Assembly: GCA_963804085.1 (NCBI GenBank)
Contig: CAWDOQ010000002.1
Span: 32,001 to 96,000 of the forward strand
Reading direction: 5' to 3'
Origin: Chlamydiia bacterium
Lineage (GTDB): Bacteria; Chlamydiota; Chlamydiia; Chlamydiales; Rhabdochlamydiaceae
DNA length: 64,000 nucleotides
Shown: piece after piece, positions 2,586 through 60,975 of the stretch
Layout of the letters: every line of letters starts with the position of its first letter
How positions within the stretch are numbered: the first letter of the stretch is position 1
Notes under the pieces: generated by a model
What the model was told of the DNA's origin: nothing
What the model saw: the letters and a program-made list of their open reading frames with translations, nothing else
Database searches by the model: none
Position numbers and translations under genes: made by a program

Positions 2586-3518
2586 TTATGCGGGGAATGT
2601 GTTGGCGACGCCAAAAGAGGGATGTGTTTTATCATAGGAGTCAAGAACGTAGAAAGACGCACGGTTAGAGCTTCCACACACCACTTGCCAAGCCCCATAC
2701 TTCTCATGGTATCCACAATCAGATGTACGTGTATAAGTGGGCTCACGCAAAAGAAGAGTTTTAAAACGCACATAGTGGGCAATAGCGCTCACAGTGATCC
2801 AGAGCGCCTTTCCTAGCTTGTACCTCTGTCCTGCTTCGGCTTGTGTTGCACCTTTACTTCCTGGCTCTACATCTTTTTGCATCCATACCCAGAGCGATTT
2901 TTTCTGCGCCTCTTGTCCATATTTTTTTAAAACTGGATCGGTAACATAAGGATGCGTGCCTCCCTTGTCTACAAGAGGAAGAAAGCTGTTAAAACAAAGC
3001 GGCTGGCCGTCTACGGTAGCAGGAATCAGCGTGAGAGTGTAGGTCTCTTTAAGCTCGGCAATAGTGCGATGGATGCTGGCAGGTAGTCGTGGCGCTACTC
3101 CTGGATCTACTTTAAAATACTCCTTCCACTCTTTGACTCCGAATGCAAAAGGAGGCTGAGGATTGGAAAAAGCTTCTTTGTTTCTGTATACTTCAAGAGG
3201 ATCTACCTTCTCTTGCTGACACTGCACTTTCCAGACCTTGTTGGGAATCTTCCACGCTTTACAGACGGTTTCACATCTACCGAGATCTTCAGGCAACAGA
3301 TATTTCATGCAATTGTAGAAGGCGTCGGGACAGCGCTGCGAAATATCATCTTGATTTTGTAAAGGTAGACTTTGCTTCCAACCAAAAAGCTCGCTGATCC
3401 AAGCGCAAACCACTTTCCAGATAGCGGCAACGCGCTCCAGAAGTTCTGCATAGCAGGGCTTGTCTTCAGGCATTGCTACAGCGGCTTTTGTAGAATGTAT
3501 GCCGATTGCTTGTGTCAT
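2586..3518 (-). CDS. F-box-like putative effector, paralog A
   Basis: F-box-like CPDAFYNCMKYLLPEDLGRCETVCKAWK; shares AFG..EW, TLTLIP.TV.G, LGKA.WITVS and TRT..GVA with three other ORFs in the window. Confidence 0.75.
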   Translation of the reverse strand: MTQAIGIHSTKAAVAMPEDKPCYAELLERVAAIWKVVCAWISELFGWKQSLPLQNQDDISQRCPDAFYNCMKYLLPEDLGRCETVCKAWKIPNKVWKVQCQQEKVDPLEVYRNKEAFSNPQPPFAFGVKEWKEYFKVDPGVAPRLPASIHRTIAELKETYTLTLIPATVDGQPLCFNSFLPLVDKGGTHPYVTDPVLKKYGQEAQKKSLWVWMQKDVEPGSKGATQAEAGQRYKLGKALWITVSAIAHYVRFKTLLLREPTYTRTSDCGYHEKYGAWQVVCGSSNRASFYVLDSYDKTHPSFGVANTFPA

Positions 3519-4492
3519 AGAGCCTCCACTTCTGCAGGAAATGTGTTTGCCACGCCGGTAGAATCTTGATCATATTCGCTAGAGGAGGCTATGACACCAA
3601 AGCTATCTGAAAACCGACCGCCAACACTCGCAGACCAAACAAAAGATGGATCGTCCCCACTAGCTGGATCTTCCCCACTGTCACGTGTTCGTGTGTAGTC
3701 ACTGCCGGTTCGAAAGAGAGTGATCTTATAGCGAGCATAGTGAGCTGCTACGCTGACAGTGATCCAGAGCGCTTTCCCAAGCTTTTTTGGGTATGCTCGC
3801 TCTACTTGAGCTTGCGTCATGCTGCGACTTTCCGGTTCTATCTCCTTTTGCATCCAGACCCATAAGGACTTACCTACAACCTCGTTTCCATATTTTCCTT
3901 CAACATCTGGCCACATGCTAACAGTTTGACCGATCTTCTTGGCAAGCGGTGCAAAGGTGTTAAAGCAAAGCGGCTGGCCGTCTACGGTAGCAGGAATCAG
4001 AGTGAGAGTGTAGGTCTCTTTTAATTGGGCAATAGTGCGATGGATGCTGGCAGGTAGTCGTGGCGCTGCTCCTGGATCTACTTTAAAATACTCCTTCCAC
4101 TCTTGGACTCCGAATGCAAAAGGAGGAGCAGGATTGGCAAAAGCCTTTTTGTGGCTACCATCTTCGAGCGGATAATCTACCTGTTCTTGTTCGCATTGCA
4201 CTTTCCAGACCTTGTCGGGAATCTTCCACGCTTTACAGACGGTTTCGCATCTACCCACCTCTGTAGCTGACAGATATTTCATGCAATTGTAGAAGGCGTC
4301 GGGACAGCGCTGCGAAATATCATCTTGATTTTGTAAAGGTAGACTTTGTTGCCATCCAAAAAGCTCGCTGATCCAGGCGCAAACCACTTTCCAGATAGCA
4401 GCAATGCGCTCCGCAAGCTCTGCGTAACAGGGCTTTTCCTCAACTATTGTTGAGACGGCTTTTGTAGGATTTATACTTATTTCTTGTGACAT
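3515..4492 (-). CDS. F-box-like putative effector, paralog B (tandem duplicate of A)
   Basis: Near-identical N-terminal half to paralog A; start at MSQEI chosen by alignment; stop overlaps the start of A (ATGA). Confidence 0.75.
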   Translation of the reverse strand: MSQEISINPTKAVSTIVEEKPCYAELAERIAAIWKVVCAWISELFGWQQSLPLQNQDDISQRCPDAFYNCMKYLSATEVGRCETVCKAWKIPDKVWKVQCEQEQVDYPLEDGSHKKAFANPAPPFAFGVQEWKEYFKVDPGAAPRLPASIHRTIAQLKETYTLTLIPATVDGQPLCFNTFAPLAKKIGQTVSMWPDVEGKYGNEVVGKSLWVWMQKEIEPESRSMTQAQVERAYPKKLGKALWITVSVAAHYARYKITLFRTGSDYTRTRDSGEDPASGDDPSFVWSASVGGRFSDSFGVIASSSEYDQDSTGVANTFPAEVEAL

Positions 4493-4557
4493 ATGCGAAG
4501 ATAATATCACATAAATGAGAAAAACGAAACTGCAATACTATAATACTAAATAATTTA

Positions 4558-5070
4558 TTAGCAATCTTTCGTGATGGTGAGAAGGAAGGAGTGACGGTAG
4601 CCGAGCTTATGGGAGAGAAAGGCGCCGAGTTCTTTTTCTATGCGCGTGAGCGTCTGCTTCTGCTCAGAGACTGAGAGCTCTGGCAGCTTTGCTACGATTT
4701 CGATCTTCTGGTTGCCGTAGACGATCACCTCTTTTACTTCGCTTTCGGGCGAAAAGAAGCTCTCTTTCCAGAACTTTTCGATGTAGGTATGTAAAAGGGC
4801 AAGATCCATCTGCGCATCCCCTCCTTTCATGCGCACCTGGTAGTATCTACCTCGGTGCATCACAAAAAAACCGACGAAAAGCAGTAGCCCTAAAAAGATC
4901 AGCCCGTAGCCCGCAAGCGAAAAAAAGGCGGAGGATTTGGATAAAACGCTCATGAGAAGAAGCGGGAAGTGGGGCACATGGACAATACCGAGAAAAAAGA
5001 GTCCGGCGCTTACAATCGCAGCTACCACGAAAAGTTGAACAGCTGAAAAGAGTAGATTGCCTGAGCGCAT
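4558..5070 (-). CDS. Membrane protein, probable AmaP-like anchor partner of Asp23
   Basis: Two N-terminal hydrophobic helices; directly downstream of the Asp23-family gene. Confidence 0.6.
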   Translation of the reverse strand: MRSGNLLFSAVQLFVVAAIVSAGLFFLGIVHVPHFPLLLMSVLSKSSAFFSLAGYGLIFLGLLLFVGFFVMHRGRYYQVRMKGGDAQMDLALLHTYIEKFWKESFFSPESEVKEVIVYGNQKIEIVAKLPELSVSEQKQTLTRIEKELGAFLSHKLGYRHSFLLTITKDC

Positions 5071-5079
5071 TTGCGGTCT

Positions 5080-5529
5080 CTAAAAGTCTGCGTTATATTT
5101 AGGGGCGGAGGTGCTGTTTTTATCTTGAGGAGTACTTTTGTGCGTTTCCATCGAGATCAGATTCTTGAAAATTACATGGACGCAGCCCACATGTAAGGCT
5201 GTCAGCTTGCTGATATCCTGCGCAATTTTGGTCTGGACCTCCTCTGCTTTTTCGGGAAGGGAGACGCCATAAGCGACATTGATCTCTACCTTGATATTCA
5301 CCGAGTGGCTCTTCTGATCCTGTTCGACATTGATGCCGGAAAGCCTATTTTCCACATCTCTACCGAGCAAGTTATCGAACAGATTGCCCTCTATGAGTGC
5401 CACACCCTGAATCCGCGAAAGGCACTGCAAAACGATCGATTGAAAAACACGGCTTTCAATGTCGCGAATAAAAACGGTCTCCGGCAGCTCCAGCTCTTTC
5501 GTATCGATCTGTTTAAGTTTGTTGTGCAT
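5080..5529 (-). CDS. Asp23/Gls24 family envelope stress protein
   Basis: GINVE..VNIKVEINVAYGVSLPEKAEEVQ..I..LT.L.V..V.V pattern; SD GAGGT upstream. Confidence 0.85.
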   Translation of the reverse strand: MHNKLKQIDTKELELPETVFIRDIESRVFQSIVLQCLSRIQGVALIEGNLFDNLLGRDVENRLSGINVEQDQKSHSVNIKVEINVAYGVSLPEKAEEVQTKIAQDISKLTALHVGCVHVIFKNLISMETHKSTPQDKNSTSAPKYNADF

Positions 5530-5586
5530 AAGACACCTCTACTTTATGCCGATATTAATCAATGCCGGCTTTTTCCAACACTCTTT

Positions 5587-5705
5587 ACGTGCCCGTGTGC
5601 GTGCCCGTGCCCGTGCCCGATCTTTCTTTTCTCTTCAATAATCCGGATCAGGCACGGGCACGGGCACGGGCACGGGCACGGGCACAGGCAGAGGCACAGG
5701 CAGGT
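5587..5705. repeat. Hexamer-period inverted repeat element (GTGCCC)n..ATCCGGAT..(GGGCAC)n
   Basis: Tandem GTGCCC arm, pyrimidine-rich spacer with ATCCGGAT, tandem GGGCAC arm. Confidence 0.9.
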
Positions 5706-5748
5706 TAAAGACTTATGCAACAATTTCGTTTTACGCTACAATCAGCCC

Positions 5749-6141
5749 ATGCAAGTATTCATCACCCTAATCTTCTGGGTCCTGCTCGGAAGCATCACAG
5801 CTTATTATGCCAAAGAGCGTGGCCGTCACCAGTGGGGCTGGTTTTGCATCGGTCTTTTTCTTGGTATCTTTGGCATTATCTTGCTCTTTGTCCTGCCAAG
5901 AAAAAAACTACAGACGCCGCCGGTATATCCGGAAATGGAGGAGATCCCCGCGCCCCCACCTAAAGTGCTGGGTTCTACAAAATTCTGGTACTATTTGGAT
6001 GGAGAAAACAAGCAGCTGGGCCCGATGAGCTACAACGCGCTTGTATCCGCTTCACAAGAAGGCAAAGTCACGCCGACTACCTACGTCTGGAATGAAGATC
6101 TAGAAAATTGGAAACGCTTTGGAGAACTGGTTACCAGCTAG
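5749..6141 (+). CDS. Membrane protein with C-terminal GYF_2 (DUF4339) domain
   Basis: Two TM segments, then WYYLD..QLGP....L....G.VT..TYVW..DL.NW; the longer ORF call reads through the repeat. Confidence 0.85.
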
Positions 6142-6436
6142 CCTTGACGATTCCGGGAATGAGGCCGGCATTGGCCATCTCGCGGAAGCAGAGACGCGAA
6201 AGTTTGAACTTTCTTAAGTATCCTCTTGCTCGTCCTGTGAGTTGGCAACGGTTGCGCAGGCGTACAGGCGAAGAGTTTTTCGGCATCTTGTTAAGCGCGA
6301 TCTGCGCTTCTAGACGCTCTTCTTCACTCTTGTTTTGATCGAGAATGACCTTTTTGAGTTGTTGACGCTTGTCCCACTTAAGACGGACAAGACGTTCACG
6401 ACGCTTCTGCTTTGCAATAGAGGATTTTGTTGCCAT
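6131..6436 (-). CDS. rpsN: 30S ribosomal protein S14
   Basis: 101-aa type with [36 protein letters not shown]. Confidence 0.98.
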
Positions 6437-6444
6437 AGTGTTCT

Positions 6445-6582
6445 TTATTTTTTACGTGCAGGACCCTTCTGCCTTTGCTTACGGTTCGGGTCTGTCTTGT
6501 TGATAACGTAGATACGTCCACGTCTGCGGACGATCTTGTCGCCTTTTGAAGGATCTGCTTTGATGGATGCTCGTACTTTCAT
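6445..6582 (-). CDS. rpmJ: 50S ribosomal protein L36 (zinc-free chlamydial type)
   Basis: Hand translation [45 protein letters not shown]; below the ORF-track length cutoff. Confidence 0.96.
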
Positions 6583-6639
6583 AATGAAGACATTTATAAC
6601 TTTTTTGCTGATTTCTTGCAAAGCCCTAAAATTTTCGCC

Positions 6640-8238
6640 CTAAAATTTTTGATAGAGCCAGCTAAACAAATTGCAGAGGCTCTCCCAGAAAAAGCAGCAC
6701 CAGCCAGATACCCGTTCCCAAAAGGTGCGAGTTACCACGATGTCGGGCCGGTTGTGGGCCCGAGCCAGATTTAAAAAGCGCTCAGGCACCTCTTGTACTT
6801 GGGTCCCGTTTACATCCAAATCGGTCAAACGGGTTAAATTATTTATTTCATCGGGCAGGTAGCTGATCTTGGTAAAAGCGACATCCAGACGCTCCAATGC
6901 GGCAAGAGGCCCGATCACCTCTCCAGGAAGATAAGCTACAGGATTGCTGCGGCAGCTAAAGAGCTTCAGTGCAGTGAGCTGTCCTATCTCTAGAGGAAGC
7001 TCTGTAAGACGGTTAGAGTCCAGGTTCAAGGAGGTGAGCATTTTTAGGTTGCCCACGCTGGAAGGAAGGACTTCTAAACCGCCATAGGTCATACGGAAAT
7101 CAGTCAATTGCGTCCAATTTCCTATCCAGGAGGGCATCTGCTTAATGTGACAGCTTAACGTCCGTAAAGCGCTCACTTGTTTCCAATCGCTGAGTGTCTC
7201 CGGCAAGGTTTGTACGTTGGTATTGTAGAGGGATAGGCTGGATAACTTTAAACGGCCAAAGCTTGGTGGCAGCGCTCTTAAAGGATTCGCAGAAAAGGAA
7301 AAATCAGTGAGCCTGGTCAAATTGCCGATATCGAGGGGAAGCTCCGTGAGCAGGTTTTCATAAAGATGCAAATTGTGGAGGTTTTGAAGTTGGCAGATCT
7401 CATCCGGAATCTTTTTGAGCCGATTCTTGCCTAGATTAAGCTGGCGGAGCTCCTTGAGTTTGCCGATTTCGGGGGTGAGATGCTCCAGCTCGCTATCCTC
7501 CAAATTTAACTGCTCTAAATTTATTAGATATCCAATAGTAGAAGGGAGAACCTTTATAGAGGCATGTGCGAAATGCAAATTTTGCACTCCTTTAAAATGC
7601 TGGATCTCCAGAGGCAGAAAATTGAATTCTGCTGAACCGAAGCAGGACGTAATACAAGTAACCGCATTAAAAATAGGCAGATTGACATCATCGCCGAGAA
7701 GCTTGCGCACATGCCCGGCTCGGTTGATCATTTCCAGCCGCTCTTGCTCATTTTTAGGGGCATTATCTAACGGATGAAAAAAATCTTTGCGAAGGGGGAT
7801 GCGCGGAGGTCCCCATCCGTCTATCTCCTCTGCATGGCAACGCGTCTCTTTAAAAAACTTGAGCAGAGTTCTTGCTTCTACCCACTGGGCCTGCTCGACC
7901 AGAGTCTTTGGTTCGAGTGTGCCCCTGACGAGAAGCGGGTCTTTCACTCTCCGATATTCGCGCATCTCCATAATGCGATCTTTGCCATGCAGGTGCTCTC
8001 TAAAGCTCTTATAAATAGAGCGGACTCGCTGCGCTTCTTGATCCTTTTCCGGAAAGTCTAAAACCGCCTTCTCGACATAGGGCGCTAAAACCGGGAATCC
8101 CCTGTAGGTCTCAAAAAGCATTTTAAAGGATGCCTTTGCAGCATCCGCCCACAACCTAGTCACGCAAGCCAGCCGCGGCGCAGCTGTGGAGTAGCTCCCC
8201 ATAATCTTTAAAACATTGCTGTTTAACTCAACACTCAT
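6640..8238 (-). CDS. Leucine-rich repeat protein with degenerate N-terminal F-box-like motif, putative effector
   Basis: About 12 LRRs of 23 aa (LP.EIG.L..L..L.L..N.L..); N-terminal LNSNVLKIMGSY...LACVTRLW. Confidence 0.85.
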   Translation of the reverse strand: MSVELNSNVLKIMGSYSTAAPRLACVTRLWADAAKASFKMLFETYRGFPVLAPYVEKAVLDFPEKDQEAQRVRSIYKSFREHLHGKDRIMEMREYRRVKDPLLVRGTLEPKTLVEQAQWVEARTLLKFFKETRCHAEEIDGWGPPRIPLRKDFFHPLDNAPKNEQERLEMINRAGHVRKLLGDDVNLPIFNAVTCITSCFGSAEFNFLPLEIQHFKGVQNLHFAHASIKVLPSTIGYLINLEQLNLEDSELEHLTPEIGKLKELRQLNLGKNRLKKIPDEICQLQNLHNLHLYENLLTELPLDIGNLTRLTDFSFSANPLRALPPSFGRLKLSSLSLYNTNVQTLPETLSDWKQVSALRTLSCHIKQMPSWIGNWTQLTDFRMTYGGLEVLPSSVGNLKMLTSLNLDSNRLTELPLEIGQLTALKLFSCRSNPVAYLPGEVIGPLAALERLDVAFTKISYLPDEINNLTRLTDLDVNGTQVQEVPERFLNLARAHNRPDIVVTRTFWERVSGWCCFFWESLCNLFSWLYQKF

Positions 8239-8338
8239 CTCAAGTTCTCAATGGCTAAATTAAAAAAGTGTCAGTATTTTACTAAATTCATAGATACAAC
8301 TCAAACAATTGATTGTTTTACGCTCTTCTGCAATGCGG

Positions 8339-8563
8339 CTCCGTACTGGACAAAAAATTAATACAGAAGAATTTCTAAACGATGACAGAATGGTAAGCGG
8401 CAGGATAACAGAATAAGAAAGAAAAAGAGTTTCAACAGGATGGGCAGGATAGACAGGATAAAAGAGAGCATAATTTAAATTAAAACAGGATTTTTTCTTC
8501 ATCCTGCTTATCCTGCCCATCCTGTTGTAACTCTTTGTCTTCCAACTTTTGTCCAGTACAGAG
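8339..8563. mobile_element. 225-bp MITE with 17-bp terminal inverted repeats and 9-bp target-site duplication
   Basis: TIR CTCCGTACTGGACAAAA (8339-8355) / TTTTGTCCAGTACAGAG (8547-8563), one mismatch; GCAATGCGG directly repeated at 8330-8338 and 8564-8572. Confidence 0.88.
8424..8536. repeat. Nonamer-period hairpin (CAGGATnnn)3..(ATCCTGnnn)3 inside the MITE
   Basis: AAAGAGTTTCAACAGGATGGGCAGGATAGACAGGAT pairs with ATCCTGCTTATCCTGCCCATCCTGTTGTAACTCTTT. Confidence 0.88.
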
Positions 8564-8720
8564 GCAATGCGGTGCAAAATGAAGAAATTATTTTACCACC
8601 CGCTTCGCAAGCTCGCTAGAGAGCACAGAGAAGAGAATGCTTTAATTCTCCTTGCGGGTTTAAGGACGTTTGGGATACTCTCGCTGTTACTTAAATTATT
8701 CTTTTTTAGGACGAGTGATC

Positions 8721-8855
8721 ATGAAAAGAACCTACCAACCAAGCAAAATAAAGCGCCAGAAGACATGGGGATTTCGCAAAAGAATGAAGACCTCTCACGG
8801 ACGCAAGATCGTAAACCGCAGACGCAGACAAGGCCGCAAACGCCTCTCAGTCTAG
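8721..8855 (+). CDS. rpmH: 50S ribosomal protein L34
   Basis: [10 protein letters not shown]....GFR.RM.T..GR.I..RRR..GRK.L; SD AGGA upstream. Confidence 0.98.
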
Positions 8856-9205
8856 TCCGTCTAACATTTCCGAAAGCTGCGCGCATCCGCACAAAGCGCC
8901 ACTATTCCGGCGTAATTAGAGCTGGAAAGCGGCTTGCAGGCGGATCGATCCTGATCGATTACCGTTTAGGCCATGCCACGCGTCCCAAGCTCGGCATCAC
9001 AGTGTCTCGCAAATATGGAAAAGCTCACGAAAGAAACCGCTTTAAGCGTCTGGTCCGCGAAGCCTTTCGCACCTATGCGCTAAAACTACCGCGCGATCTT
9101 GAGATCAATGTTCTACCGCGCACCTCTTACGCTATCTCTAAAATCAGCAAAAATGGGGTCCTAGAGGATCTCACTCTTCTAGCTAATAAGTGTGGCAAAC
9201 AATAA
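8765..9205 (+). CDS. rnpA: Ribonuclease P protein component (start uncertain)
   Basis: [38 protein letters not shown]; nearest in-frame ATG is 8765 inside rpmH, conserved part begins at about 8855. Confidence 0.9.
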
Positions 9206-11204
9206 AGACTTCTCTCAACTAAATCCCGAGCAAAGACGCGCTGTCACCACGACAGATGGACGGGTTCTTATTCTCGCGGGAGCCGGCAGCGGTAAAACAA
9301 GCGTGCTGGCCTACAGGATCGCCTACCTGATCGGCGAGTTGAGAGTCTCGCCTAAAGCGATCTTGGGGCTCACCTTCACAAATAAAGCTGCAAAAGAGAT
9401 GCGCGAGCGGGTTGCCAGCTTGGTGGGAGCATCCGTCGCTAAAGAAACAACTCTCTCTACTTTTCATAGCTTTGGGTGCCAGGTGCTGCGCAAGGAGATC
9501 CATCATCTGGGTTACACCTCTCACTTCACGCTTTACGACGAACAAGATGTTAAGCGCCTCCTCAAGCAGCTGGCACGTCATCTTCTCGAGCAAGAGGGTG
9601 AGATTCCTTCGATCGAAGGGATCTACGCAAAGTTTTCGAAAGCCAAAGGACGCAGCACCAATCTTGAAGAAATTAGCGAAGAGGATGAGACGTGGAAGGA
9701 GCCGTTTATCCGCGATCTTTTCACCCGTTTTCAAACGTGCATGCGCGCCTACAATGCGGTCGATTTCGACAGCCTGCTCTCCTTAACGGTCGAACTCTTT
9801 GAAAAGTTTCCGGCCGTCCTTCAAAAGTACCAAGAACGCTATCGCTACATCATGATCGACGAGTATCAGGACACCAACCCGATGCAATATCGCTTGGCCA
9901 AACTGCTCGCCTCCTCCCACCAAAATCTCTGTGTGGTAGGCGACGATGACCAGTCGATCTACGGATGGCGCGGCGCTGAGATTAAGAATATCTTACAGTT
10001 TGAGTCCCAGACGATCATTAAACTGGAGCAGAACTACCGCTCGACTCCGACGATTTTAAAGGCGGCTCACGCCGTCATCACACGCAATAAGGAGCGCCAC
10101 TCAAAAGAGCTCTGGAGTTCGCACGAGACAGGTGATCCTATCTCTCTCTTCCATGCGCCAAGCGAGATGGAGGAGGCGCAAGCGGTTATCGATCGGATCG
10201 TCTCGTTGCATAAAAACAAAAAGATTCCGTGGAAGGAGATGGCAATTCTCTACCGCTCTAACCTTCTTTCGCGTCCCTTTGAGCTGGCTCTCATGCAGAC
10301 TGTGTACGAAAAAGAGGGCAAGTGGATACGCGGCATCCCCTACCAGATCTTTGGCGGTACCGAGTTTTACGAAAGAAGCGAGATTAAAGATCTTCTGGCG
10401 TACATGAAGGTGATCGCCAATCCCTTGGATCAGGAGTCGCTTCTACGCATCGTAAATGTCCCAAGACGCGGGATCTCAGATCTTGCTCTCGATAAGATCA
10501 CACAGAAAAACCGGCAGGAGAATCTGCCCCTATTGCAGCTTATGGCAAATCTTTCTCCTGAGCTTTGCGACGAGCTCTCCTCAAAAGCAACTAACGGCAT
10601 TGCCTCATTTGTCAAATTACATCAAGAGGCAAGAGCAAAATTCCAAACAGGCTCTTTAGCATCCGCTCTCGAATGGCTGATTGCCGAGATAGACTACAAA
10701 AAAGCAATCTCGGAAGATGTGCAGAGCGACAAGATGCGCGACTTTAAGTGGGAGAACGTCCTGCATTGCGTAGATGTTCTTAAACGTTACGAAGAGGAGA
10801 TGGAAAAAGAGGGAAGAAAAGAGGAGATCTCGCTCTCTCACTTCGTCACAAACACCCTTTTGGACAAAGAAAAGGTGATCCAGCGAGATGAGGCTGCATC
10901 GCGCGAAGACAAGGTGAATCTGATGACCTTTCATAGCGCAAAAGGGCTAGAGTTTACCGCCTGTTTCCTCGTGGGCTTGGAGGACCATCTTCTGCCCCAC
11001 GAAAAGAGTTTGGGAGAGCGCGGCGTAGAGGAGGAGAGACGCCTCTTTTATGTCGCACTCACTCGTGCAAAAAAACAGCTGCTACTCAGCATGGCGCGCT
11101 CGCGCAAAAAAATGGGTAAAGAGATTAAGACGAACCCCTCGCGTTTTCTCTTTGAGATCCCGCAAGAGCTCATCAAAATTGTCTCTTGGAAAGAAAAGAT
11201 ATGA
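9192..11204 (+). CDS. UvrD/Rep/PcrA-family ATP-dependent DNA helicase
   Basis: AGAGSGKT, TFTNKAA, DEYQD, VGDDDQSIY, LEQNYRS, MTFHSAKGLEF, EERRLFYVALTRA. Confidence 0.96.
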   Translation: MANNKDFSQLNPEQRRAVTTTDGRVLILAGAGSGKTSVLAYRIAYLIGELRVSPKAILGLTFTNKAAKEMRERVASLVGASVAKETTLSTFHSFGCQVLRKEIHHLGYTSHFTLYDEQDVKRLLKQLARHLLEQEGEIPSIEGIYAKFSKAKGRSTNLEEISEEDETWKEPFIRDLFTRFQTCMRAYNAVDFDSLLSLTVELFEKFPAVLQKYQERYRYIMIDEYQDTNPMQYRLAKLLASSHQNLCVVGDDDQSIYGWRGAEIKNILQFESQTIIKLEQNYRSTPTILKAAHAVITRNKERHSKELWSSHETGDPISLFHAPSEMEEAQAVIDRIVSLHKNKKIPWKEMAILYRSNLLSRPFELALMQTVYEKEGKWIRGIPYQIFGGTEFYERSEIKDLLAYMKVIANPLDQESLLRIVNVPRRGISDLALDKITQKNRQENLPLLQLMANLSPELCDELSSKATNGIASFVKLHQEARAKFQTGSLASALEWLIAEIDYKKAISEDVQSDKMRDFKWENVLHCVDVLKRYEEEMEKEGRKEEISLSHFVTNTLLDKEKVIQRDEAASREDKVNLMTFHSAKGLEFTACFLVGLEDHLLPHEKSLGERGVEEERRLFYVALTRAKKQLLLSMARSRKKMGKEIKTNPSRFLFEIPQELIKIVSWKEKI

Positions 11205-13024: not shown

Positions 13025-13486
13025 ATGCTTACATTTCCTCCAACACTTATTTTGAGACACAAAAGAGAGAATTTAAAAAAGTGCAGCCTGCGCGGTCTAG
13101 AAACACGTCCCGACTTTCGCTTTTTTACCTATCCGCCAGTAGCATTGCCCGATCTGTCCGGATATTTTCTGCTCTCTTTGGATGGACCGCCCCTAAGCAT
13201 AAAAGACAAGGAGCTAGGGATTTTTTTGATCGACGCTACTTGGCGCCACGCAGAAACGATCTTCCGACAACTGCCTAAGCCGCACACTTTTGTGGAGCGC
13301 TCGATCCCTTCACACTTTCAGACAGCCTATCCAAGAAGACAGGAGGATTGCCCAGATCAGGCGCGCGGCCTCGCTTCGATCGAAGCGCTCTTCATCGCTC
13401 ACACAATTTTAGAAAGAGATACGAACGGCCTACTGGACGGGTACCACTGGAAAGAGGAGTTCCTCAAGTTGAACTTTACTGCGTGA
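13025..13486 (+). CDS. DTW/Tsr3-like putative RNA aminocarboxypropyltransferase
   Basis: ENLKKCSL, IDATW and LASIEAL motifs. Confidence 0.7.
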   Translation: MLTFPPTLILRHKRENLKKCSLRGLETRPDFRFFTYPPVALPDLSGYFLLSLDGPPLSIKDKELGIFLIDATWRHAETIFRQLPKPHTFVERSIPSHFQTAYPRRQEDCPDQARGLASIEALFIAHTILERDTNGLLDGYHWKEEFLKLNFTA

Positions 13487-14397
13487 GGGCCACGCCAACA
13501 TCTTCGCTGGGATTGCCGCGATGACCTGCGATTGTAAGAGAGCCATTACATAAATTTCCGACAATAACATACCAGTTACCATACTCATCCCTGCCTCTAT
13601 CAGATGTGCGTGTATTTTGGTGTGGAAAGAGGGCGATCTTATAGCGCGCATAATGAGCCACAATGCTCACAGTGATCCAGAGCGCTTTTCCCAATTTTCT
13701 TCCGTAAGTCTTTTCTGCCCCTTCTTGCGTTACACCTCGGCTTTCCCATTCTGGACCCTTTTGCAGCCAAAGCCAGATCGACTTGCCTTGAGCCTCATCG
13801 CCATATTTTTCGGAAACCTCTTCTTTAATAGACAAACGCACGCCGCACTTTTTTGCAAGAGGTGCAAATGTCTTAAAAGTCAGGGGCTGCTCATTGACGG
13901 TTTTAGGGATGAGCGTCAAAGTATGCGTCTCTCCAAGTTCTGCAATTTGACTTTTGATATTAACAGGAAGGGGCGGCGTAGGGCTTATCTTGCCAAAATG
14001 CTTTCTCCACTCTTTTGGGCCAAATGCCATTTCAGGAACGATGAACAGGTCTTTAAATCGCCCCCCTTCCGGTGACACCGATTATGCCATAATTGGCGCA
14101 CTGGGCTTGCCAGATCCTCTCGATTTTCCAAGATTTAGCTACTCTTTCGCATCTTGCTAGGTCTTCCGGTTCCAGGTAGCGCACCATGTGACAGAAGCAG
14201 TTTTGACTTTTGAGAGCAAGATTCTGAGTGGCACCTTTGTTTTCCCAAGAAAAAAGCTGGCTTGCTAAAGCAGAGATCCACGCACACACGCTGTTCCAGA
14301 TCCCAGCAATACGCTCGAAAAGCTCTTCATAGCAGGGCTTTTCTTGTACAAGTGCGGGAGTGCTGATTGTAGAATTTAATGTTATTGCTTGTGCCAT
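13476..14397 (-). pseudogene. F-box-like effector paralog C, split by a frameshift at a G6 run (14061-14066); may be an assembly error
   Basis: ORFs 14053-14397 and 13476-14078 together align end to end with paralogs A, B and D; removing one G joins them. Confidence 0.7.
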
Positions 14398-47964: not shown

Positions 47965-47967
47965 CGC

Positions 47968-52327: not shown

Positions 52328-52464
52328 TCTTCTTTTCTCTCTTCTTCTCCATTTTTCTCTTCTTCAATTTTAAAGAAATCTTTAAGAATTGCCGCTAAAA
52401 AAATTTTGTGTTTAAATACACCTTCGTTTTTTCGCAATCAACCTCTTTACAAGGAGAACTGACC

Positions 52465-54339: not shown

Positions 54340-54368
54340 TCGTTCTAGCTTAAGCTTATAACCTAAAC

Positions 54369-54403
54369 GGGCGCCGGGGTTTTCCCCAGCGCCCTTTTCT
54401 TTT
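54369..54403 (+). terminator. Intrinsic terminator of the coiled-coil gene
   Basis: GGGCGCCGGGG-TTTT-CCCCAGCGCCC followed by TTTTCTTTT. Confidence 0.8.
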
Positions 54404-54414
54404 GAGACATCTTC

Positions 54415-54498
54415 TCGTTACCGTTACCGTTTCCCGTCACCGTTACCGATCTTTCTTCTTTTTTCGGTAACGGTGACGGGAAACGGTAACGGTAACGA
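54415..54498. repeat. Hexamer-period inverted repeat, GTTACC subfamily
   Basis: Perfect 35-bp arms 54415-54449 / 54464-54498. Confidence 0.93.
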
Positions 54499-54537
54499 AA
54501 TTAGAAGAGGTGGTCTGATATAACCGCGTACTCCAAA

Positions 54538-54566
54538 TTGACTTATCAGAGAAAACTCGGTATGCT
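54538..54566 (+). promoter_or_regulatory. Putative sigma66 promoter of the serS operon, 8 nt from the ATG
   Basis: TTGACT-17 nt-TATGCT. Confidence 0.65.
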
Positions 54567-54574
54567 CTCGGTAT

Positions 54575-55859
54575 ATGCTAGACATAAAACTTCTGCGCAA
54601 AGATAGCAGCTATTACGAGAAAAAGCTCAAGACAAAGGACCCGGAGGTCTCACTCGCGCCGGTTCTTGCCCTCGACGAGAAGATCCGCGAGATCAAGGCA
54701 AGTGTCGAGGAGATGAAGGCAAAGCGCAACCATCTCTCTCAAGAGATCGGCGAGAAGAAGCGCAAAAAAGAGGATGCCTCGACTTTAATGAAAGAGGTCT
54801 CGGGCATGGGCGAGAAGATCGCCGAGCTGGATCGCCAGCTTGCGTGTGTGGAGGCGGAGTTTACAGAACAGCTGGCCTCTCTTCCCAACCTGCCGCTTGA
54901 TGAGATCAAAGTCTCATCAGACCCCAAAGATAATGTCTGCATCAAGACACGCGGTGAAAAACCAGACTTCAGCTTCCCCTTTAAAAACCATGTGGAGCTC
55001 AATGAAAGGCTGGATATCTTCGACTTTCCCGCGCGGTGCAAAAATATCGGGAAGCGGCTGGCCTGTCTATAAAGATTTAGGCGCAAGGCTTGAGTGGGCG
55101 CTTTTAAACTACATGCTGGATATCCAGATCGAAAATGGGTTTAAGATGTGGATGGTGCCGCTGCTTGCAAAACCGGAGATCGTCTATGGCTCGGGGCAGC
55201 TGCCAAAGTTTGAGCATCAGCTTTTTAAAATCAACGACCCACACCACAACCTCTATCTTCTACCGACCTCTGAGGTCGCTCTGAATGGCCTCCACTACAA
55301 TGAGATCTTAAAAGAGGAGGAGCTCCCGCTCAAGTACACTGCATACACTCCCTGCTTTAGAAGAGAGGCGGGAGCAGCAGGTTCGCAAGAAAGGGGCTTG
55401 ATCCGCGTGCATCAATTCAATAAGGTAGAGATGTTCGCCTTCACTACACCGGAACAGAGTATGGCTATGTTTGAAGAGATGGTAGCAAGCGCAGAGAAGA
55501 TCCTCGAGGGGCTCGGCCTTCATTACCGCAACATGCTGCTTGTGACGGGCGATATGTCCTTTCAAGCGACAAAAACTGTCGACATCGAAGTCTGGCTGCC
55601 GGGACAGAACAGATACTACGAGGTCTCTTCTGTCTCCCACTGCTCAGATTTTCAGGCAAGACGTTCTCTTACCCGTTTCCGCAAGAAAGAGGAGAAGCCG
55701 GAGTTTGTCCATACGCTCAACGGCTCTGGGCTTGCCACTTCGCGCCTCATGGTAGCTCTTTTAGAAAATAATCAGAGAGAGGATGGCTCTGTCTCTCTTC
55801 CTATCGTCTTACATAAATACATGAATGGGATCAAAGAATTATGCCCAGTAAAGACCTAA
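54575..55859 (+). CDS. serS: Serine-tRNA ligase, frameshifted near 55028
   Basis: MLDIK coiled-coil arm; PTSE, FRREAG, GLIRVHQF.KVE, HTLNGSGLA; removing one base in TTTCCC restores DFPRGAKISG. Confidence 0.96.
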
Positions 55860-57127
55860 GCGACTTTAAGTCCTTTCTAGACAAGTCACCTACCTCGTGG
55901 CATGCAGCAGAAGAGCTTGCTAAACGCTTGGCCTCTAGTGGTTTTTCTCGCTTACACGAAGAGGAGAAGTGGAAGCTGCAAAAAGGCAAGAGCTACTTTG
56001 TACAGCGAGGCGGCTCACTCTGCGCCTTTTCGCTTCCTAAAAAAACAGCAAAGAGAGCAGTCATCTTGGGGTCGCACACAGATAGCCCCGCACTTAAAGT
56101 AAAACCCAAACCTGAAGTGCAAAAAGAGAATATGATCCTGTTGGGTGTCGAAGTCTATGGAAGCCCGCTTCTGACCTCCTGGCTTAACCGCGATCTCGCT
56201 CTAGCTGGAAGAGTGGCTGTCACAAACAAGAAAGGCAAAATACAAGAGAAGCTTGTCTTTTTAGACGAAGCTCCTCTTTTTATCCCACAGCTCGCACCCC
56301 ATCTAGATCGCGACGTAAACGAAAAAGGGCTTCTTCTCAACAAGCAGGAGCATCTAGTTCCCATCGCGACTTTGATAAGCTCAAAAGGCAAACAGAAGAG
56401 CTATTTAGAAACGCTCTTAAAGAGGCAGATCTCTTTTGATTCTCTTCTCTCTTTTGATCTTTTTTTGGTGCCGATAGAAAAGAGCCGCTACTTAGGGACA
56501 GAAGAGGAGATGCTCTCCTCCTATCGCCTCGACAACTTGGCAAGTGCACACTCCTGCGCCTCCGCCCTCATGGATTCAAAAGAATCGCAAGAGACACTGC
56601 AGATGGCAATTTTCTCCGATCATGAGGAGATCGGCTCGCGCTCATCGACTGGCGCCGCCTCTCCTTTTTTAGAAGATATCCTAAAGCGGATCACATACGC
56701 GCTTCAAATGGATGAAGAGGAGTTCTTCCAGATGAAGAGCCGCTCTCTATGCGTCTCGGTCGACATGGCCCATGCGCTCAATCCTAACTACGTGCAAAAG
56801 TATGATCCCAACCATCAGCCGCTGCTCGGCAAAGGGATCGTGGTGAAATACAACGCCGATCTCAAATACACCACTTCTGCGCCCACTGCCGCACAAGTGA
56901 TACGCCTTGCCGAAAAACTTAAACTCCCCTACCAATCTTTTGTATCGCGCTCGGACATTCCCGGGGGATCCACGATCGGTCCTATTCTGGCACAAAGTTT
57001 AGGTATCGCGACAGTTGACATAGGCTGCCCGCAGCTCTCGATGCACTCTGCTCGCGAGGTGATGGCCTGCCAAGATTTTCTCGACATGTCCACTCTACTC
57101 ACTCATCTCCTTGGTGAAGACTACTAA
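55841..57127 (+). CDS. M18 family (aspartyl) aminopeptidase
   Basis: HTDSP, WLNRDL, RLDNL, DHEEIGS, DMAH, GSTIGP, MHSARE. Confidence 0.93.
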   Translation: MPSKDLSDFKSFLDKSPTSWHAAEELAKRLASSGFSRLHEEEKWKLQKGKSYFVQRGGSLCAFSLPKKTAKRAVILGSHTDSPALKVKPKPEVQKENMILLGVEVYGSPLLTSWLNRDLALAGRVAVTNKKGKIQEKLVFLDEAPLFIPQLAPHLDRDVNEKGLLLNKQEHLVPIATLISSKGKQKSYLETLLKRQISFDSLLSFDLFLVPIEKSRYLGTEEEMLSSYRLDNLASAHSCASALMDSKESQETLQMAIFSDHEEIGSRSSTGAASPFLEDILKRITYALQMDEEEFFQMKSRSLCVSVDMAHALNPNYVQKYDPNHQPLLGKGIVVKYNADLKYTTSAPTAAQVIRLAEKLKLPYQSFVSRSDIPGGSTIGPILAQSLGIATVDIGCPQLSMHSAREVMACQDFLDMSTLLTHLLGEDY

Positions 57128-57128
57128 T

Positions 57129-57887
57129 ATGGTTCTTCCTCCACCTTCTGAGCATTTTCAAGGAAAGAGCGTCGTCGAGCATCTGATCGAAGCGCGCACA
57201 AAAGGGGCGTTTGCTTCAAGCGAGATCCACGGCACCGAGATGCCCGGGTATTTGGGAGCAGGATCGGATGGAGCAAATGAGACGTGCGTAGCGCTCCTCC
57301 TCATCTGGGTTGCGCTCTCCCCTTTTGCGCTAAGCTCAACGCAAATTCTTTTAGCCCTCGTTTTTTTCTCCTGCGGCTTTCTTGTCTGGAAAGTGGGTAG
57401 AAGCGCACTTTTGGGATGGGCAAGGCTAGAGCGGCTCCACCGCCTGACCGAAGAGGAGCGCTGGGAGATCGAACACCATAGAGCACAGGAAAGAGAGGAG
57501 CTAACAGAGCTCTACCGCGCCAAAGGCTTCGAAGGAAAACTTTTAGAAGAAGCAATCGATGTGCTGATGGCAGATGATAACCGTCTACTCCGTGTGATGC
57601 TCGAAGAGGAGCTCGGTCTGACACTGGAAAGCTACGAGCACCCCCTAAAGCAGAGCGTAGGCGCTTTTGTAGGCGTTCTACTTGCAGCCACTCTTTTGAT
57701 AGCTAGCTATTGGATCAGCCCCGTTTATGGCATAGCGATAAGCGCCTTTTGCTTAATCAGCATCTCCAGCATAATCAGCGCCAAAAGACAGCGCAACCAT
57801 GTGCTGCCTGCGATGATATGGCATCTTGCAGTAGCCGCTTTTGGCGGTTTTGCTGCTTATTTTTTGACAAAAGCTCTTTCTGTTTAA
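57129..57887 (+). CDS. VIT1/CCC1-like membrane protein
   Basis: EE.WEIE....EREEL..LY..KG and MLEEELG metal-binding region between TM helices. Confidence 0.8.
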   Translation: MVLPPPSEHFQGKSVVEHLIEARTKGAFASSEIHGTEMPGYLGAGSDGANETCVALLLIWVALSPFALSSTQILLALVFFSCGFLVWKVGRSALLGWARLERLHRLTEEERWEIEHHRAQEREELTELYRAKGFEGKLLEEAIDVLMADDNRLLRVMLEEELGLTLESYEHPLKQSVGAFVGVLLAATLLIASYWISPVYGIAISAFCLISISSIISAKRQRNHVLPAMIWHLAVAAFGGFAAYFLTKALSV

Positions 57888-57891
57888 AACA

Positions 57892-59856
57892 ATGCTTCGC
57901 ACTTCGCCCTACATCTTCGATGAGTTCTTCGCCTCAGGAAGGGAGGAGAGCATCAGCCCCTTTCTTAAGCCAACCTCCCGCAGGTGGGGTAAAAATCTCC
58001 CTCTAAAAAGTGCTGCTCTCTCTGCTTTTCTTTTGGCAGCCGCATTTACAACCTCCTTTTTTCATCCCGTTTTTGCTTCGATGCTCCTAGCCTCTGTCTA
58101 TTTTTTTGTGGGAACGCCCGCTCTCATCGATGCGCTGAGCGACCTAAAAAACTTAGAGATCAACATCGATGTTCTGATGACGCTTGCGGCGCTTCTGTCA
58201 ATTCTAATTGGTAGCGAAATGGAGGGGGCGCTTCTTCTGGTGCTCTTCGAACTATCGGCTGCTATCGAAAATAGCGTGACACAAAAAGCCAAGGGCACAC
58301 TCTCTTCTCTTCATCAGCTTACGCCGCGCACGGCATGGGTGGCAGATGAAAATGGCACACTCTACGAAAAGGCGGTATCCGAGATTGCTATCGGTACGCC
58401 TCTTCTCATCAAAGCAGGAGAGCTCGTCCCTCTCGATGGCGTCGTGACCTTCGGAAGCTCCGCGCTCAATCTTGTCCACCTCACAGGCGAAAGCCACCCG
58501 ATCCCAAAAGAGATAGGAGCAGAAGTGCCCGCAGGCGCGCGCAATCTAGATGGCGTGCTCACGATCCGCGTGACGCGCACAAGCCGAGACTCGACACTCT
58601 CTCGCATCATCCAGCTCATCACCCACGCCCAAGAGACCAAACCAAAACTTGCGCGCATCATCGATAGGTTTGGCAAGTGGTACGCCGCAGCGATCATCCT
58701 CCTGTTTTTTATTTTTGCCGGCACTCTGCCTTGGATCTTCTCTATCCCCTACCTTGGAACAGAAGGAGGCCTTTATCGCGCACTCACCTTCCTCATCGCC
58801 GCCTCTCCTTGCGCGCTCGTCATCGCAACACCGATCGCTTACATGAGCGCCATCTCTGCCTGTGCAAAAAAGGGAATCGTGCTCAAAGGCGGCATCGTGC
58901 TGGATGCGCTCTCTCGCTCTCACACAATCGCCTTTGATAAGACCGGAACGCTTACAACCGGCAAGCTTCAGTGCGTCTCATTCGAACCACTCTCGGAAAA
59001 GCCTAACTGCTCGCTCGAAAGAGCGCTCGCGCTCGCTTATGCGCTCGAAAGAAATGCACTCCACCCGATTGGAGAGGCGATCTCTGCCTATGCACAGAAG
59101 CAGGAGCTTGCGCCTGCACTGATCGACCGATTTAAAGCAGTTGCAGGTTCCGGCTTAGAAGCCCACACAAAAGAGTATCCTGTCTACATCGGGCGTCCCG
59201 AGTTTATCCACTCAAAACTCTCCCCTCCGTTTCGCGCTAAATGGGAAGAGATAAAACCCCGCTTCCGCAAAGAAGGACACCTTTCTACACTTCTTCTGGT
59301 TGGAGATTCTCTTTTTATTTTCTATTTCACCGATCAGGTGCGTGCACAAGCAAAAGAGATGATTCAAACGCTATCTGGCAGACACAAGATTGTCATGCTG
59401 ACGGGTGATCATAAAGACAATGCCGAGTATGTCGCAAAAAAACTGAATATCGACACGGTCTTTGCAGATCTACACCCCGAAGATAAGTTACAAAAAGTAG
59501 CAGAACTCTCCGAAAAAGGTGGGCTGATCATGGTGGGCGATGGGATTAATGATGCGCCCGCACTTGCGCGCGCAACCGTCGGCGTCTCGATGGGCAAGAT
59601 CGGCAGCGCCACAGCAGTGGATGCCTCCGACGTCGTCTTCCTTCAAGATGACCTTTCGCTCCTTCCCTGGTTAAAAGCAAAGGCGGACAAAACCCTGCGC
59701 ATTGTAAAAGAGAATCTCTTGCTTGCGCTTGCTGTGATACTCCTCGCGACAACTCCGGCCCTTCTCGGCCTCGTTCCTCTCTGGATCGCCGTCCTTCTGC
59801 ACGAAGGCGGCACGGTGCTTGTCGGCCTGAACTGCCTCCGCCTTCTCAAGAAGTAA
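57892..59856 (+). CDS. Heavy-metal P1B-type ATPase (SPC motif, P1B-4-like)
   Basis: TGES, AASPCAL, DKTGT, HP, GDGINDAPAL, HEGGT. Confidence 0.93.
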   Translation: MLRTSPYIFDEFFASGREESISPFLKPTSRRWGKNLPLKSAALSAFLLAAAFTTSFFHPVFASMLLASVYFFVGTPALIDALSDLKNLEINIDVLMTLAALLSILIGSEMEGALLLVLFELSAAIENSVTQKAKGTLSSLHQLTPRTAWVADENGTLYEKAVSEIAIGTPLLIKAGELVPLDGVVTFGSSALNLVHLTGESHPIPKEIGAEVPAGARNLDGVLTIRVTRTSRDSTLSRIIQLITHAQETKPKLARIIDRFGKWYAAAIILLFFIFAGTLPWIFSIPYLGTEGGLYRALTFLIAASPCALVIATPIAYMSAISACAKKGIVLKGGIVLDALSRSHTIAFDKTGTLTTGKLQCVSFEPLSEKPNCSLERALALAYALERNALHPIGEAISAYAQKQELAPALIDRFKAVAGSGLEAHTKEYPVYIGRPEFIHSKLSPPFRAKWEEIKPRFRKEGHLSTLLLVGDSLFIFYFTDQVRAQAKEMIQTLSGRHKIVMLTGDHKDNAEYVAKKLNIDTVFADLHPEDKLQKVAELSEKGGLIMVGDGINDAPALARATVGVSMGKIGSATAVDASDVVFLQDDLSLLPWLKAKADKTLRIVKENLLLALAVILLATTPALLGLVPLWIAVLLHEGGTVLVGLNCLRLLKK

Positions 59857-60042
59857 TGAACCTCTTGCGTAACCTCATTCGCCCGCTAAAACCGCCCTTT
59901 TGAATCCAGCTGCCTCGCAACTCCTCAACCAACTTTATTCAAGTTGGTCTCGTCGTTGCGACCAGGCCAGCTTCGCTGGCCTTGGCAGCTGGATTCAAAA
60001 ACATCGATTTTTTCGGGCAAAGCAGGTTACGCAAGAGGTTCA
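59857..60042. mobile_element. 186-bp palindromic MITE-like element resembling Rickettsia palindromic element ends
   Basis: Perfect 19-bp TIR TGAACCTCTTGCGTAACCT/AGGTTACGCAAGAGGTTCA; inner perfect 17-bp inverted repeat 59898-59914 / 59984-60000. Confidence 0.85.
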
Positions 60043-60048
60043 AGAGGT

Positions 60049-60975
60049 CTAGGAATAACAAGGAGCTACCCCAGCAGTTGAGGATCTACCATTATGGGGG
60101 ACGATAGTGACAAAGCCTTTTTGAGGACATCCAACAAAAATTTCGTTGTCCCCGGGGGCACCTAGCTCATCGCGTGTGCGCGTAAAGGTCCATGTTTTGT
60201 GATCTTTTCGCGGAAAGAGGGTAATTTGGTAGCGGGCATAATGGGCAACTACGCTCACGGTTATCCAGAAAGCTTTTCCTAGCTTTAACCCATATTGGCT
60301 TTCTGCGTCACTTTGCATGAGTCCCCTGCTTTTGGGATCTATCTCCTTTTGCATCCATAACCATATCGATTTGGCATTAGACTCATCTCCAAATTTTGTT
60401 AAAATAGCGGGTCGAATATCGAAACGCTTTCCACTCTTCTCTGCAAGGGGGGCAAAAGCGTTAAAATTAAATGGCCGGCCATCTACTGTCGCGGGAATCA
60501 AGGTGAGTGTGTGGGTCTTTTTTAGCCGTGCAGCTAGGGCGGAGATATTTGCAGGGAGCCGGGGCATTGGGCCAGGCTCTCCCCAACCCTGTTTCATGTA
60601 TTCTCGCGGACCAAAAGCCATTTTGGGAATATCAAAGACATCTTTGTAGCGCCCGCTAACAGGTGCTGAAGTCACGCCGATATTTACGCATTGAGCTTTC
60701 CAGACTTTGTCGGGTATCTTCCAGGATTTGCAGACTCTTTCGCATGTCGCTACCTCTTCGGGCAATAGGTAGTGCATGGCGATGTAAAAGGCGTCGGGAG
60801 ATTGCTGCGAGATATCACCTTTATTTTCCGGTTTAGGAGCAAACAGCTCGCATATCCATGTGCAAAAAGCATTCCAGATCGCGCAAATGCGCTCTAAAAG
60901 CTCCATATAGCAGGGCTTTTCTTCGAATATTACCGGAACTGTAATTGCAGGATCTGAGCCTATTGGTTGCGTCAT
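60049..60975 (-). CDS. F-box-like putative effector, paralog D
   Basis: SPDAFYIAMHYLLPEEVATCERVCKSWK and the same C-terminal scaffold as paralogs A-C. Confidence 0.75.
   Translation of the reverse strand: MTQPIGSDPAITVPVIFEEKPCYMELLERICAIWNAFCTWICELFAPKPENKGDISQQSPDAFYIAMHYLLPEEVATCERVCKSWKIPDKVWKAQCVNIGVTSAPVSGRYKDVFDIPKMAFGPREYMKQGWGEPGPMPRLPANISALAARLKKTHTLTLIPATVDGRPFNFNAFAPLAEKSGKRFDIRPAILTKFGDESNAKSIWLWMQKEIDPKSRGLMQSDAESQYGLKLGKAFWITVSVVAHYARYQITLFPRKDHKTWTFTRTRDELGAPGDNEIFVGCPQKGFVTIVPHNGRSSTAGVAPCYS

Follow-up and report, generated by a model that had tools for sequence, protein, structure and literature searches.

A family of F-box proteins with hypervariable C-type-lectin-like tips in a Rhabdochlamydiaceae genome, and the probable origin of the tips in a diversity-generating retroelement

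The window analysed here, a stretch of 64,000 nucleotides from a member of the Rhabdochlamydiaceae (C2:32001-96000; C-numbers denote contigs of the genome under study, G-numbers sampled related chlamydial genomes), carries four paralogous copies of a gene whose product combines a Trp/Cys-rich leader helix, an F-box and a C-terminal domain of the C-type-lectin (CLec)/FGE fold class that ends in a hypervariable tip. In related chlamydiae the 3' end of the sequence encoding the same domain is the variable repeat (VR) of diversity-generating retroelements (DGRs), and the genome under study retains an AAC-rich template repeat (TR) that differs from six family copies mainly at adenines. We consider it likely that the genes form a fixed family of F-box/CLec effectors whose tips were generated by a DGR process, the enzymes of which are missing from the assembly (2.13 Mb in 24 contigs, 47.9% G+C, rated 91% complete). 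The organism is an uncultured environmental chlamydia, with a UvrC that shares 60-67% identity with those of MAGs assigned to Chlamydiales, Chlamydiae or Parachlamydiales. Judging from their sequences, the proteins are probably injected effectors. Four features in combination, namely the F-box, the place at which the CLec domain sits, the fusions of this domain to other E3 modules and its targeting by DGRs, lead us to read the domain as the substrate-binding end of an SCF ubiquitin ligase adaptor and the whole family as an adaptor repertoire.

The original prediction described a four-member family with an F-box-like motif and a conserved scaffold. The paralogs are real and all of the quoted scaffold motifs were found (AFG, TLTLIP.TV, W.W.QK, LGKA.WITVS, TRT.D, the invariant Gly and GVA), but one of the four copies is split by a frameshift and the family is much larger, with about 22 loci genome-wide. 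A search of the genome with paralog 1 gave 34 matches and 33 open reading frame (ORF) matches, which were grouped into 15 uninterrupted ORFs of at least 300 aa and 7 loci in at least two pieces; the E-values of the window family within its own genome range from 1e-45 to 1e-134, far past chance. Full-length relatives outside this genome are rare (19 clusters among 5.8 billion), and none of the 150 matches from a pattern scan of a genome-contig collection with the family profile was confirmed, the genome's own record being possibly absent from that collection. The family tree is star-like with only one of 15 inner branches well supported.

The architecture is best illustrated by paralog 1 (2586..3518, minus strand, 310 aa). 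Its AF2 model, built from 76 sequences with a mean pLDDT of 90.7, consists of a disordered start, a 29-residue amphipathic helix (residues 22-50; 3369..3455, minus strand), a three-helix F-box (residues 59-102; 3213..3344, minus strand) and an alpha/beta domain (residues 118-310; 2589..3167, minus strand). Single window proteins score 16-18.6 bits against the Pfam F-box-like model, the highest value being that of paralog 1, and thus remain under the cut-off of 24.3. The profile of the 76-sequence family, by contrast, matches solved F-box proteins with E-values from 9.5e-9 to 1e-3, headed by FBXW8 (9.5e-9) and FBXW7 (2e-7), then FBXL5, and including Legionella AnkB (2.6e-4); all 42 solved sequences that match at E <=10 do so within profile positions 13-106. 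Among the 76 short relatives 57 match PF12937, with a best E-value of 4.9e-18, and a few others carry a RING domain. The paralog 1 model superimposes on Skp1-bound Fbw7 with Z 6.8 and an rmsd of 2.3 A over 65 residues (25% identity), and the model of a relative from G142 matches Cdc4 (Z 8.5), FBXO31 (8.4) and FBXO3 (8.1). The profile and fold matches bear out the proposed F-box-like motif, which would dock on host Skp1 and hence on a cullin-1 ubiquitin ligase.

The C-terminal domain had been suspected of a CLec/FGE-type fold on the basis of its tail pattern. VIA-align searches of 48,161 chains with two independent models, that of paralog 1 and that of the G142 relative (pLDDT 78.3), returned nothing but this class besides F-boxes: among the best 50 matches listed for both models, every non-F-box entry has a C-type-lectin/FGE-type fold, with Z 4.4-7.9 over 90-143 aligned residues. 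Residues ~150-310 of paralog 1 are closest to the C-domain of Bd2740 (Z 7.9), EgtB (7.5), Lcl (7.2) and pFGE (7.1), followed by the DGR variable proteins TvpA (2y3c, Z 6.9), Mtd (1yu0, 6.1) and TaqVP (5vf4, 5.2) and by many animal C-type-lectin-like domains. The G142 relative gave the same list of folds, with TvpA at Z 7.2 over 143 residues and Mtd at 5.1. Three results speak against the assignment: all CLec matches stay below Z 8, a range graded as middling; Foldseek found no match in the PDB at E <=0.001 (best 0.39); and the Pfam models FGE-sulfatase (PF03781) and Lectin_C (PF00059) matched none of the 76 members at E <=1 and none of 18 large relatives at E <=0.001. We retain the fold class because the lists hold no other fold, though each Z is middling. 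By its sequence the domain is a separate family that has no Pfam model, and the nearest clusters in a feature search of the ESM Atlas were without names. A catalytic, FGE-like enzyme was also considered and rejected, since the family has no Cys or His that all members share.

The domain is widespread well beyond the F-box proteins. A profile search of 1.84 billion representatives yielded 1403 proteins at E <=0.001, most of which match only positions ~116-309, often in two to six stretches. In the 18 large relatives that were scanned the partners include U-box, PARP, patatin with ankyrin, NACHT, TPR, HEAT, GTPase and DUF294 with leucine-rich repeats (LRR), and seven have no partner. When 200 genomes sampled from the phylum were searched with a domain-only profile, 64 gave a match, and none of the 28 genomes of one family (f4) did. 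We take the domain to be a C-terminal targeting module.

The link to DGRs, which the original prediction had drawn from the tail pattern, was confirmed in the relatives. In four of five relatives checked an RVT_1 match adjoins the C-terminal domain. With the 355-aa reverse transcriptase (RT) of G045 as query, RTs of at least 45% identity were found in 16 of 201 sampled genomes, counting the stub of the genome under study, and the remaining matches, at 24-34% identity, are longer intron-type RTs. The chlamydial DGR RT scores 78-82 bits against RVT_1 and carries the motif LGNVTSQ, which we take to mark DGR RTs. The recurrent layout consists of the target gene, a convergent RT, Avd and then the TR, with Avd lying between TR and RT on the strand opposite to both. 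The candidate Avd is a conserved ORF of ~118 aa that occupies this position in four genomes (L118 4701-5108, L119 1524-1934, L111 7953-8435 and L125 2697-3098); it scores 78.8 bits over 103 of 104 positions of the NCBIfam model DivGenRetAVD, for which the cut-off is 80, and is also under the cut-off of Pfam PF05635.

TR/VR pairs were identified in seven genomes, with between 5/5 and 12/12 mismatches at template adenines and 0-2 non-adenine mismatches per block. The adenine share is 10/11 in G113 (90 nt), 11/12 in G191 (93 nt), 12/12 in G142 (91 nt) and 9/9 in G203, while the genomes with two blocks give 5/5 and 6/7 (G045), 9/10 and 10/10 (G090), and 7/9 and 5/6 (G215). One feature fits less well: in two relatives VR and TR differ in length by one codon, the VR being the longer of the two in G045 and the shorter in G090. 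The difference lies in a run of AAC codons (L111 7861-7952 / 9523-9617; L112 2389-2476 / 4051-4141) and could be due to slippage or to a pair that is not cognate. The targets beside the RTs comprise a PARP protein (G045), U-box with TPR (G009), RING/U-box with TPR (G234), F-box-like proteins (G133, G083, G163 and G142), NACHT with MORN (G203) and a weak LRR (G090), as well as targets that have no known domain (G113, G191 and G215). G142 unites an F-box-like target (32.1 bits against the cut-off of 24.3), a full RT, a candidate Avd and the 91-nt pair. In addition, C-terminal stubs of the RT (~37-62 aa) adjoin extra target copies in G045 (G045:C1:486472-486657 and 210468-210659), G163, G236 and G083 as well as in the genome under study (C14:5077-5187), which suggests from the gene order that targets are duplicated together with their 3' flank. 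An Rfam scan of five DGR loci detected no DGR RNA family at E <=0.01, only group II intron domains; in two relatives such RNA domains (RF00029 and RF01999; L111 3030-3096 and L118 7361-7477) and RTs of the intron type are found a few kb or less from the DGR loci.

The genome under study holds the remains of such a cassette on C14, a contig of 5260 nt that carries, in order, an ATPase gene, hemB, the TR, a transposase gene, a family copy and an RT stub. The 100-nt TR (C14:2552-2651) is AAC-rich, encodes VVGGSAPGLLNVNSNNYANDNNGVASLVPAEIL and is the only TR-like sequence that a scan of the assembly for Asn-codon-rich templates recovered. The DDE_Tnp_1 transposase gene (C14:2902-4002, locus L117) separates the TR from the neighbouring family copy, which lies in three frames; a related strain in one sequencing run joins position 2807 to 4027 and so has no transposase here. 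The stub (C14:5077-5187, on the strand opposite to the family copy and convergent to it) preserves the C-terminal 37 codons of a DGR-type RT, with 70% identity over 37 aa. Six family copies align to the TR and are changed relative to it at 65 of 115 adenine sites and at 49 of 443 other sites, and the best three copies at 34 of 59 and 14 of 235, respectively. The individual values for adenine and other sites are 8/19 and 2/75 for C17:149923, 13/20 and 4/80 for the C14 copy, 13/20 and 8/80 for C16:10958, 11/20 and 10/80 for C2:331700, 8/17 and 8/58 for C17:36498, and 12/19 and 17/70 for C17:36314.

The search of the genome for a DGR RT and a template therefore succeeded for the template, whereas the RT is present only as the stub of 37 codons. 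Two further observations argue against the reading of a DGR-derived family: the assembly contains no RVT_1 match (PF00078), no RT match beyond the stub and no Avd, and C17:36498 is the only uninterrupted gene among the six template-matching copies, the other five being broken. Since the assembly is 91% complete, its lack of an RT is short of proof. Among sequencing runs, none of RNA was listed as a match; in five DNA runs from soil metagenomes no more than 0.21 of the query words occur, and the short Logan contigs from four of these runs do not cover C14:5105-5260.

Whether the tips of the window copies have the same origin is a separate matter, and it is here that the main rival explanation has to be weighed. 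The original prediction spoke of a tail that varies almost completely, and among 13 copies the lowest mean pairwise identity is indeed found at residues 283-302 (0.10, against 0.46-0.53 in helix, F-box and domain core), but the linker at 51-58 (0.16), the loop at 186-203 (0.20) and residues 259-282 (0.25) are variable as well. In the window copies the variable stretch occupies exactly the position of the template's AAC-rich part, between the same Gly and GVA anchors. These VR-equivalent segments, all on the minus strand, are 2613..2672 in paralog 1 (residues 283-302; 17 of 20 codons ending in C or T), 3557..3625 in paralog 2 (18 of 23), 13497..13556 in paralog 3 (16 of 20) and 60073..60129 in paralog 4 (15 of 19). 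In the ten family copies that do not match the TR, 165 of 215 VR-equivalent codons end in a pyrimidine compared with 1469 of 2870 elsewhere in these genes (p 1e-13), and the bias persists when only four-fold-degenerate codons are counted (84/108 vs 738/1330, p 4e-6); K, E, Q, M and W make up 9.3% of residues in these segments vs 23.5% elsewhere, and none of 5000 random windows reached the observed bias. For the four window copies by themselves the four-fold codons give 36/43 (84%) vs 274/494 (55%) elsewhere (p 3e-4). A codon-ending bias of this kind is expected from adenine-only mutagenesis of AAY codons (Y, pyrimidine), as far as can be told from the sequences.

According to the main rival, the window tips arose by ordinary duplication and divergence: as surface loops they would be under relaxed or diversifying selection, with recombination between paralogs adding to their variation, and a DGR would have acted only on the young sub-lineage of six template-matching copies. 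Much is consistent with this. The four window tips show no nucleotide-level match to the template (local alignment scores <=20), and in a protein-guided codon alignment they differ from it at 51-54% of non-adenine sites; the other loops are variable too, and the template-matching copies have the shortest branches of the family tree (0.13-0.19). BLAST with the tails of the three intact window genes returned self matches only, and the tail of the copy at 13476 also matched those of other family copies. The tandem pair at 2586-4510 is moreover a mosaic, probably formed by gene conversion of the 5' half, since the synonymous divergence (dS) is 0.31 over the first 185 residues, with a non-synonymous divergence (dN) of 0.11, whereas dS is saturated beyond residue 185 (~2.4, dN 0.53). 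Nor does this closest pair show positive selection by dN/dS, dS being saturated in its C-terminal half; omega is <1 wherever dS can be measured, except for one 30-codon window at 1.20. Amino-acid composition contributes to the codon-ending bias as well, because the pyrimidine-ending share ranges from 0.26 to 0.69 in shifted windows of the same genes. However, selection on amino acids fails to explain why the third bases of four-fold-degenerate codons are so strongly skewed in the tips, while adenine-only mutagenesis does, and the exact coincidence of the variable stretch with the AAC-rich part of the template also speaks against this rival. Because there is no template match, the case for a DGR origin of the window tips is made from position and codon-ending bias; it renders the proposal that these genes are DGR targets plausible in the form of a relic, and we hold it rather probable that the window copies are fixed descendants of DGR-written tips, with ordinary divergence a distinctly less likely course of events.

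Further support for an effector role comes from the N-terminal leader. A Trp/Cys-rich helix of ~35 aa with the approximate consensus CC..L..RIQAIW.AFC.W...L is present in all family copies, at a distance of 17-40 residues from the N-terminus; in the window it is encoded once per copy, at 3369-3455, 4328-4435, 14233-14340 and 60811-60918. With a profile of the helix, 22 more ORFs that carry it were detected in the genome, 21 of them with the helix close to the N-terminus and one with it at the C-terminal end (C19:124019-124843). The N-terminal cases include ORFs on C12, C15, C22, C17, C4, C10 and C2; C16_11640 was left out of this count as a piece of a family copy. Of these 22 ORFs, 16 were scanned, and nine have ankyrin matches (E <=0.01, three above the Pfam cut-off), one has LRR and six have nothing. 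We read the helix as a putative lineage-specific leader of effector-type proteins, and it looks like an element for secretion, chaperone binding or membrane anchoring. The genome contains a gene for FHIPEP, a component of a type-III-type export gate. Within the window, an LRR protein (6640-8238, minus strand; LRR_14, 109.8 bits) has a Trp/Cys-rich C-terminal tail that resembles the leader helix.

The proposed role as a substrate receptor has its own rival, namely that the C-terminal domain serves localisation, glycan or lipid binding or a function at the bacterial surface and that the F-box is incidental. CLec folds often bind glycans, the cellular DGR targets known to us, for instance in Legionella and Treponema, are surface proteins, and the same domain follows patatin, NACHT, GTPase and PARP modules that are unrelated to ubiquitin. 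On the other hand, most of the short relatives carry an F-box-like motif and others RING or U-box, the domain sits where substrate-binding domains sit in F-box proteins, the leader is one that ankyrin and LRR proteins share, and the N-termini of the family, judged by eye, have neither a signal peptide nor a lipobox. We thus regard a role outside ubiquitination as unlikely. Least likely of the three rivals, in our estimate, is a DGR that is still active and rewriting the family, its RT and Avd hidden in the unassembled ~9% of the genome beside a contig break: although C14 ends 73 nt past the RT stub, repeats such as TR and VR often break assemblies and no more than two of 75 non-adenine sites separate the best VR from the template, a stop codon interrupts the frame upstream of the stub within 27 codons and this frame bears no similarity to RT, an insertion sequence separates the template from a target that is itself broken up, most matching copies are defective, and G045 combines RT stubs of ~60 aa beside extra target copies with a full RT, so that a stub marks a duplicated flank, not a master gene.

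In the fixed, DGR-derived family that we favour, each protein begins with a short disordered N-terminus and the leader helix, the F-box would recruit the host ligase through Skp1 and the CLec/FGE-fold domain would bind a ligand. Its specificity tip would be formed by the last strands and by the loops between the invariant Gly and the GVA anchor. The C-terminal domain is the target domain of a chlamydial DGR clade, and in the relatives the RT, aided by Avd, would copy the AAC-rich template with errors at adenines and overwrite the tip. The genome under study has kept the template together with six copies written from it, while the enzymes are missing from the assembly, and the four window copies would have been produced earlier, by this process or by one ancestral to it, with tips that were diversified, then fixed and are now maintained as separate genes with different specificities.

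The remaining window copies conform to the plan of paralog 1, with whole-length identities to it of 68, 45, 47 and 47% for paralog 2 and the other window pieces and copies. Paralog 2 (3515..4510, minus strand) is a 331-aa ORF from a GTG in tandem with paralog 1, which it overlaps by 4 nt; an ATG seven codons inside this ORF is the likelier start, and a 325-aa form is already on record. Paralog 3 is the split copy, with a 200-aa ORF for the CLec-like domain (13476..14078, minus strand) and an overlapping 114-aa ORF in a different frame for leader helix and F-box (14053..14397, minus strand), the frame changing near 14060-14080; the closest copy to the C-terminal piece in the family tree is C10:137600 (95/93 support). 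Paralog 4 (60049..60981, minus strand) is again an ORF of 310 aa. Elsewhere in the window, the translation of an ORF at 5305-6141 (plus strand) contains runs of CP/CA and HG dipeptides, which point to a short DNA unit repeated in tandem around 5590-5700; the repeat lies opposite the gene at 5080-5529, on the other strand, or just past it.

A wider conjecture can be built on these observations, and we advance it tentatively, as something possible that we do not yet lean towards: environmental chlamydiae may hypermutate the substrate-recognition tips of injected F-box, U-box/RING and PARP-type effectors by means of a dedicated DGR clade, so that a clonal intracellular population would contain, much as in an antibody repertoire, many different binders of host proteins that are coupled to degradation or modification, and lineages such as this one would have fixed past DGR output as a multigene family after loss of the enzymes. 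If true, the rewriting of E3-ligase-adaptor tips would be a new use of targeted hypermutation, would allow rapid retargeting of host ubiquitination as a natural counterpart of engineered degraders, and would offer a concrete explanation of how chlamydiae adapt to a wide range of protist hosts although their genomes are small and exchange few genes. The family would also document how variation driven by a retroelement can end up as a set of fixed paralogs, and it defines a widespread and hitherto unannotated domain. The DGR targets known to us are phage receptor-binding proteins, bacterial surface proteins or adhesins, and cytoplasmic signalling or defence proteins. Our literature search found no paper linking DGRs to chlamydial F-box or U-box proteins, although the supplementary tables of DGR surveys, which were outside this search, may list such loci. 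In the portions of two surveys available to us Chlamydiae figure only within larger groups (Roux et al. 2021, PMC8144416; Schillinger et al. 2012, PMC3521204).

The chlamydial system shares much with those of TvpA, Mtd and TaqVP, namely the fold class, a variable region at the extreme C-terminus, an AAC-rich template with adenine-specific changes and, in the chlamydial relatives, an RT with a candidate Avd. Unlike in these systems, the chlamydial domain matches neither of the Pfam families FGE-sulfatase and Lectin_C, the hosts are of the obligate intracellular type and the N-terminal partners (F-box, U-box/RING and PARP) are eukaryote-directed. The RT is convergent to the target, Avd lies opposite to TR and RT, and the genome under study has no enzymes in its assembly; the prototype DGR of the Bordetella phage likewise has a layout that differs from the chlamydial cassettes. 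Legionella pneumophila AnkB (5k35) is, like the present proteins, a bacterial protein with a eukaryotic F-box, but its receptor part consists of ankyrin repeats and it is a single gene rather than a diversified family. Closer at hand, the Parachlamydiaceae have undergone expansions of F-box+LRR (NEX1a), RING/U-box+LRR (NEX1b) and BTB+LRR (PEX1) proteins, which, in the part of the paper at our disposal, are read as effectors and reported to be under purifying selection (Domman et al. 2014, PMC4209131). As far as that text goes, both cases are large lineage-specific expansions with an N-terminal F-box or U-box and purifying selection, seen here in the closest pair; the substrate side is LRR there and a CLec-like domain without a Pfam family here, and no retroelement is mentioned in the same text, in which no search aimed at such terms was made. 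A parallel in design is found in cyanobacteria, where, to go by the sections available, N-terminal effector or NTPase modules are followed by a C-terminal, DGR-diversified FGS domain (Kaur et al. 2020, PMC7159879; cited alongside for such conflict-system proteins, Vallota-Eastman et al. 2020, PMC7517822); the terms 'Chlamydia', 'F-box' and 'U-box' have no occurrence in the main text of the former. On this partial view, both systems place varied N-terminal modules, NACHT among them, before a C-terminal DGR-diversified CLec/FGS domain. However, the cyanobacterial proteins are read as agents of intracellular defence or signalling, whereas the E3-ligase and PARP partners of the chlamydial domain are sensible only inside a eukaryotic host.

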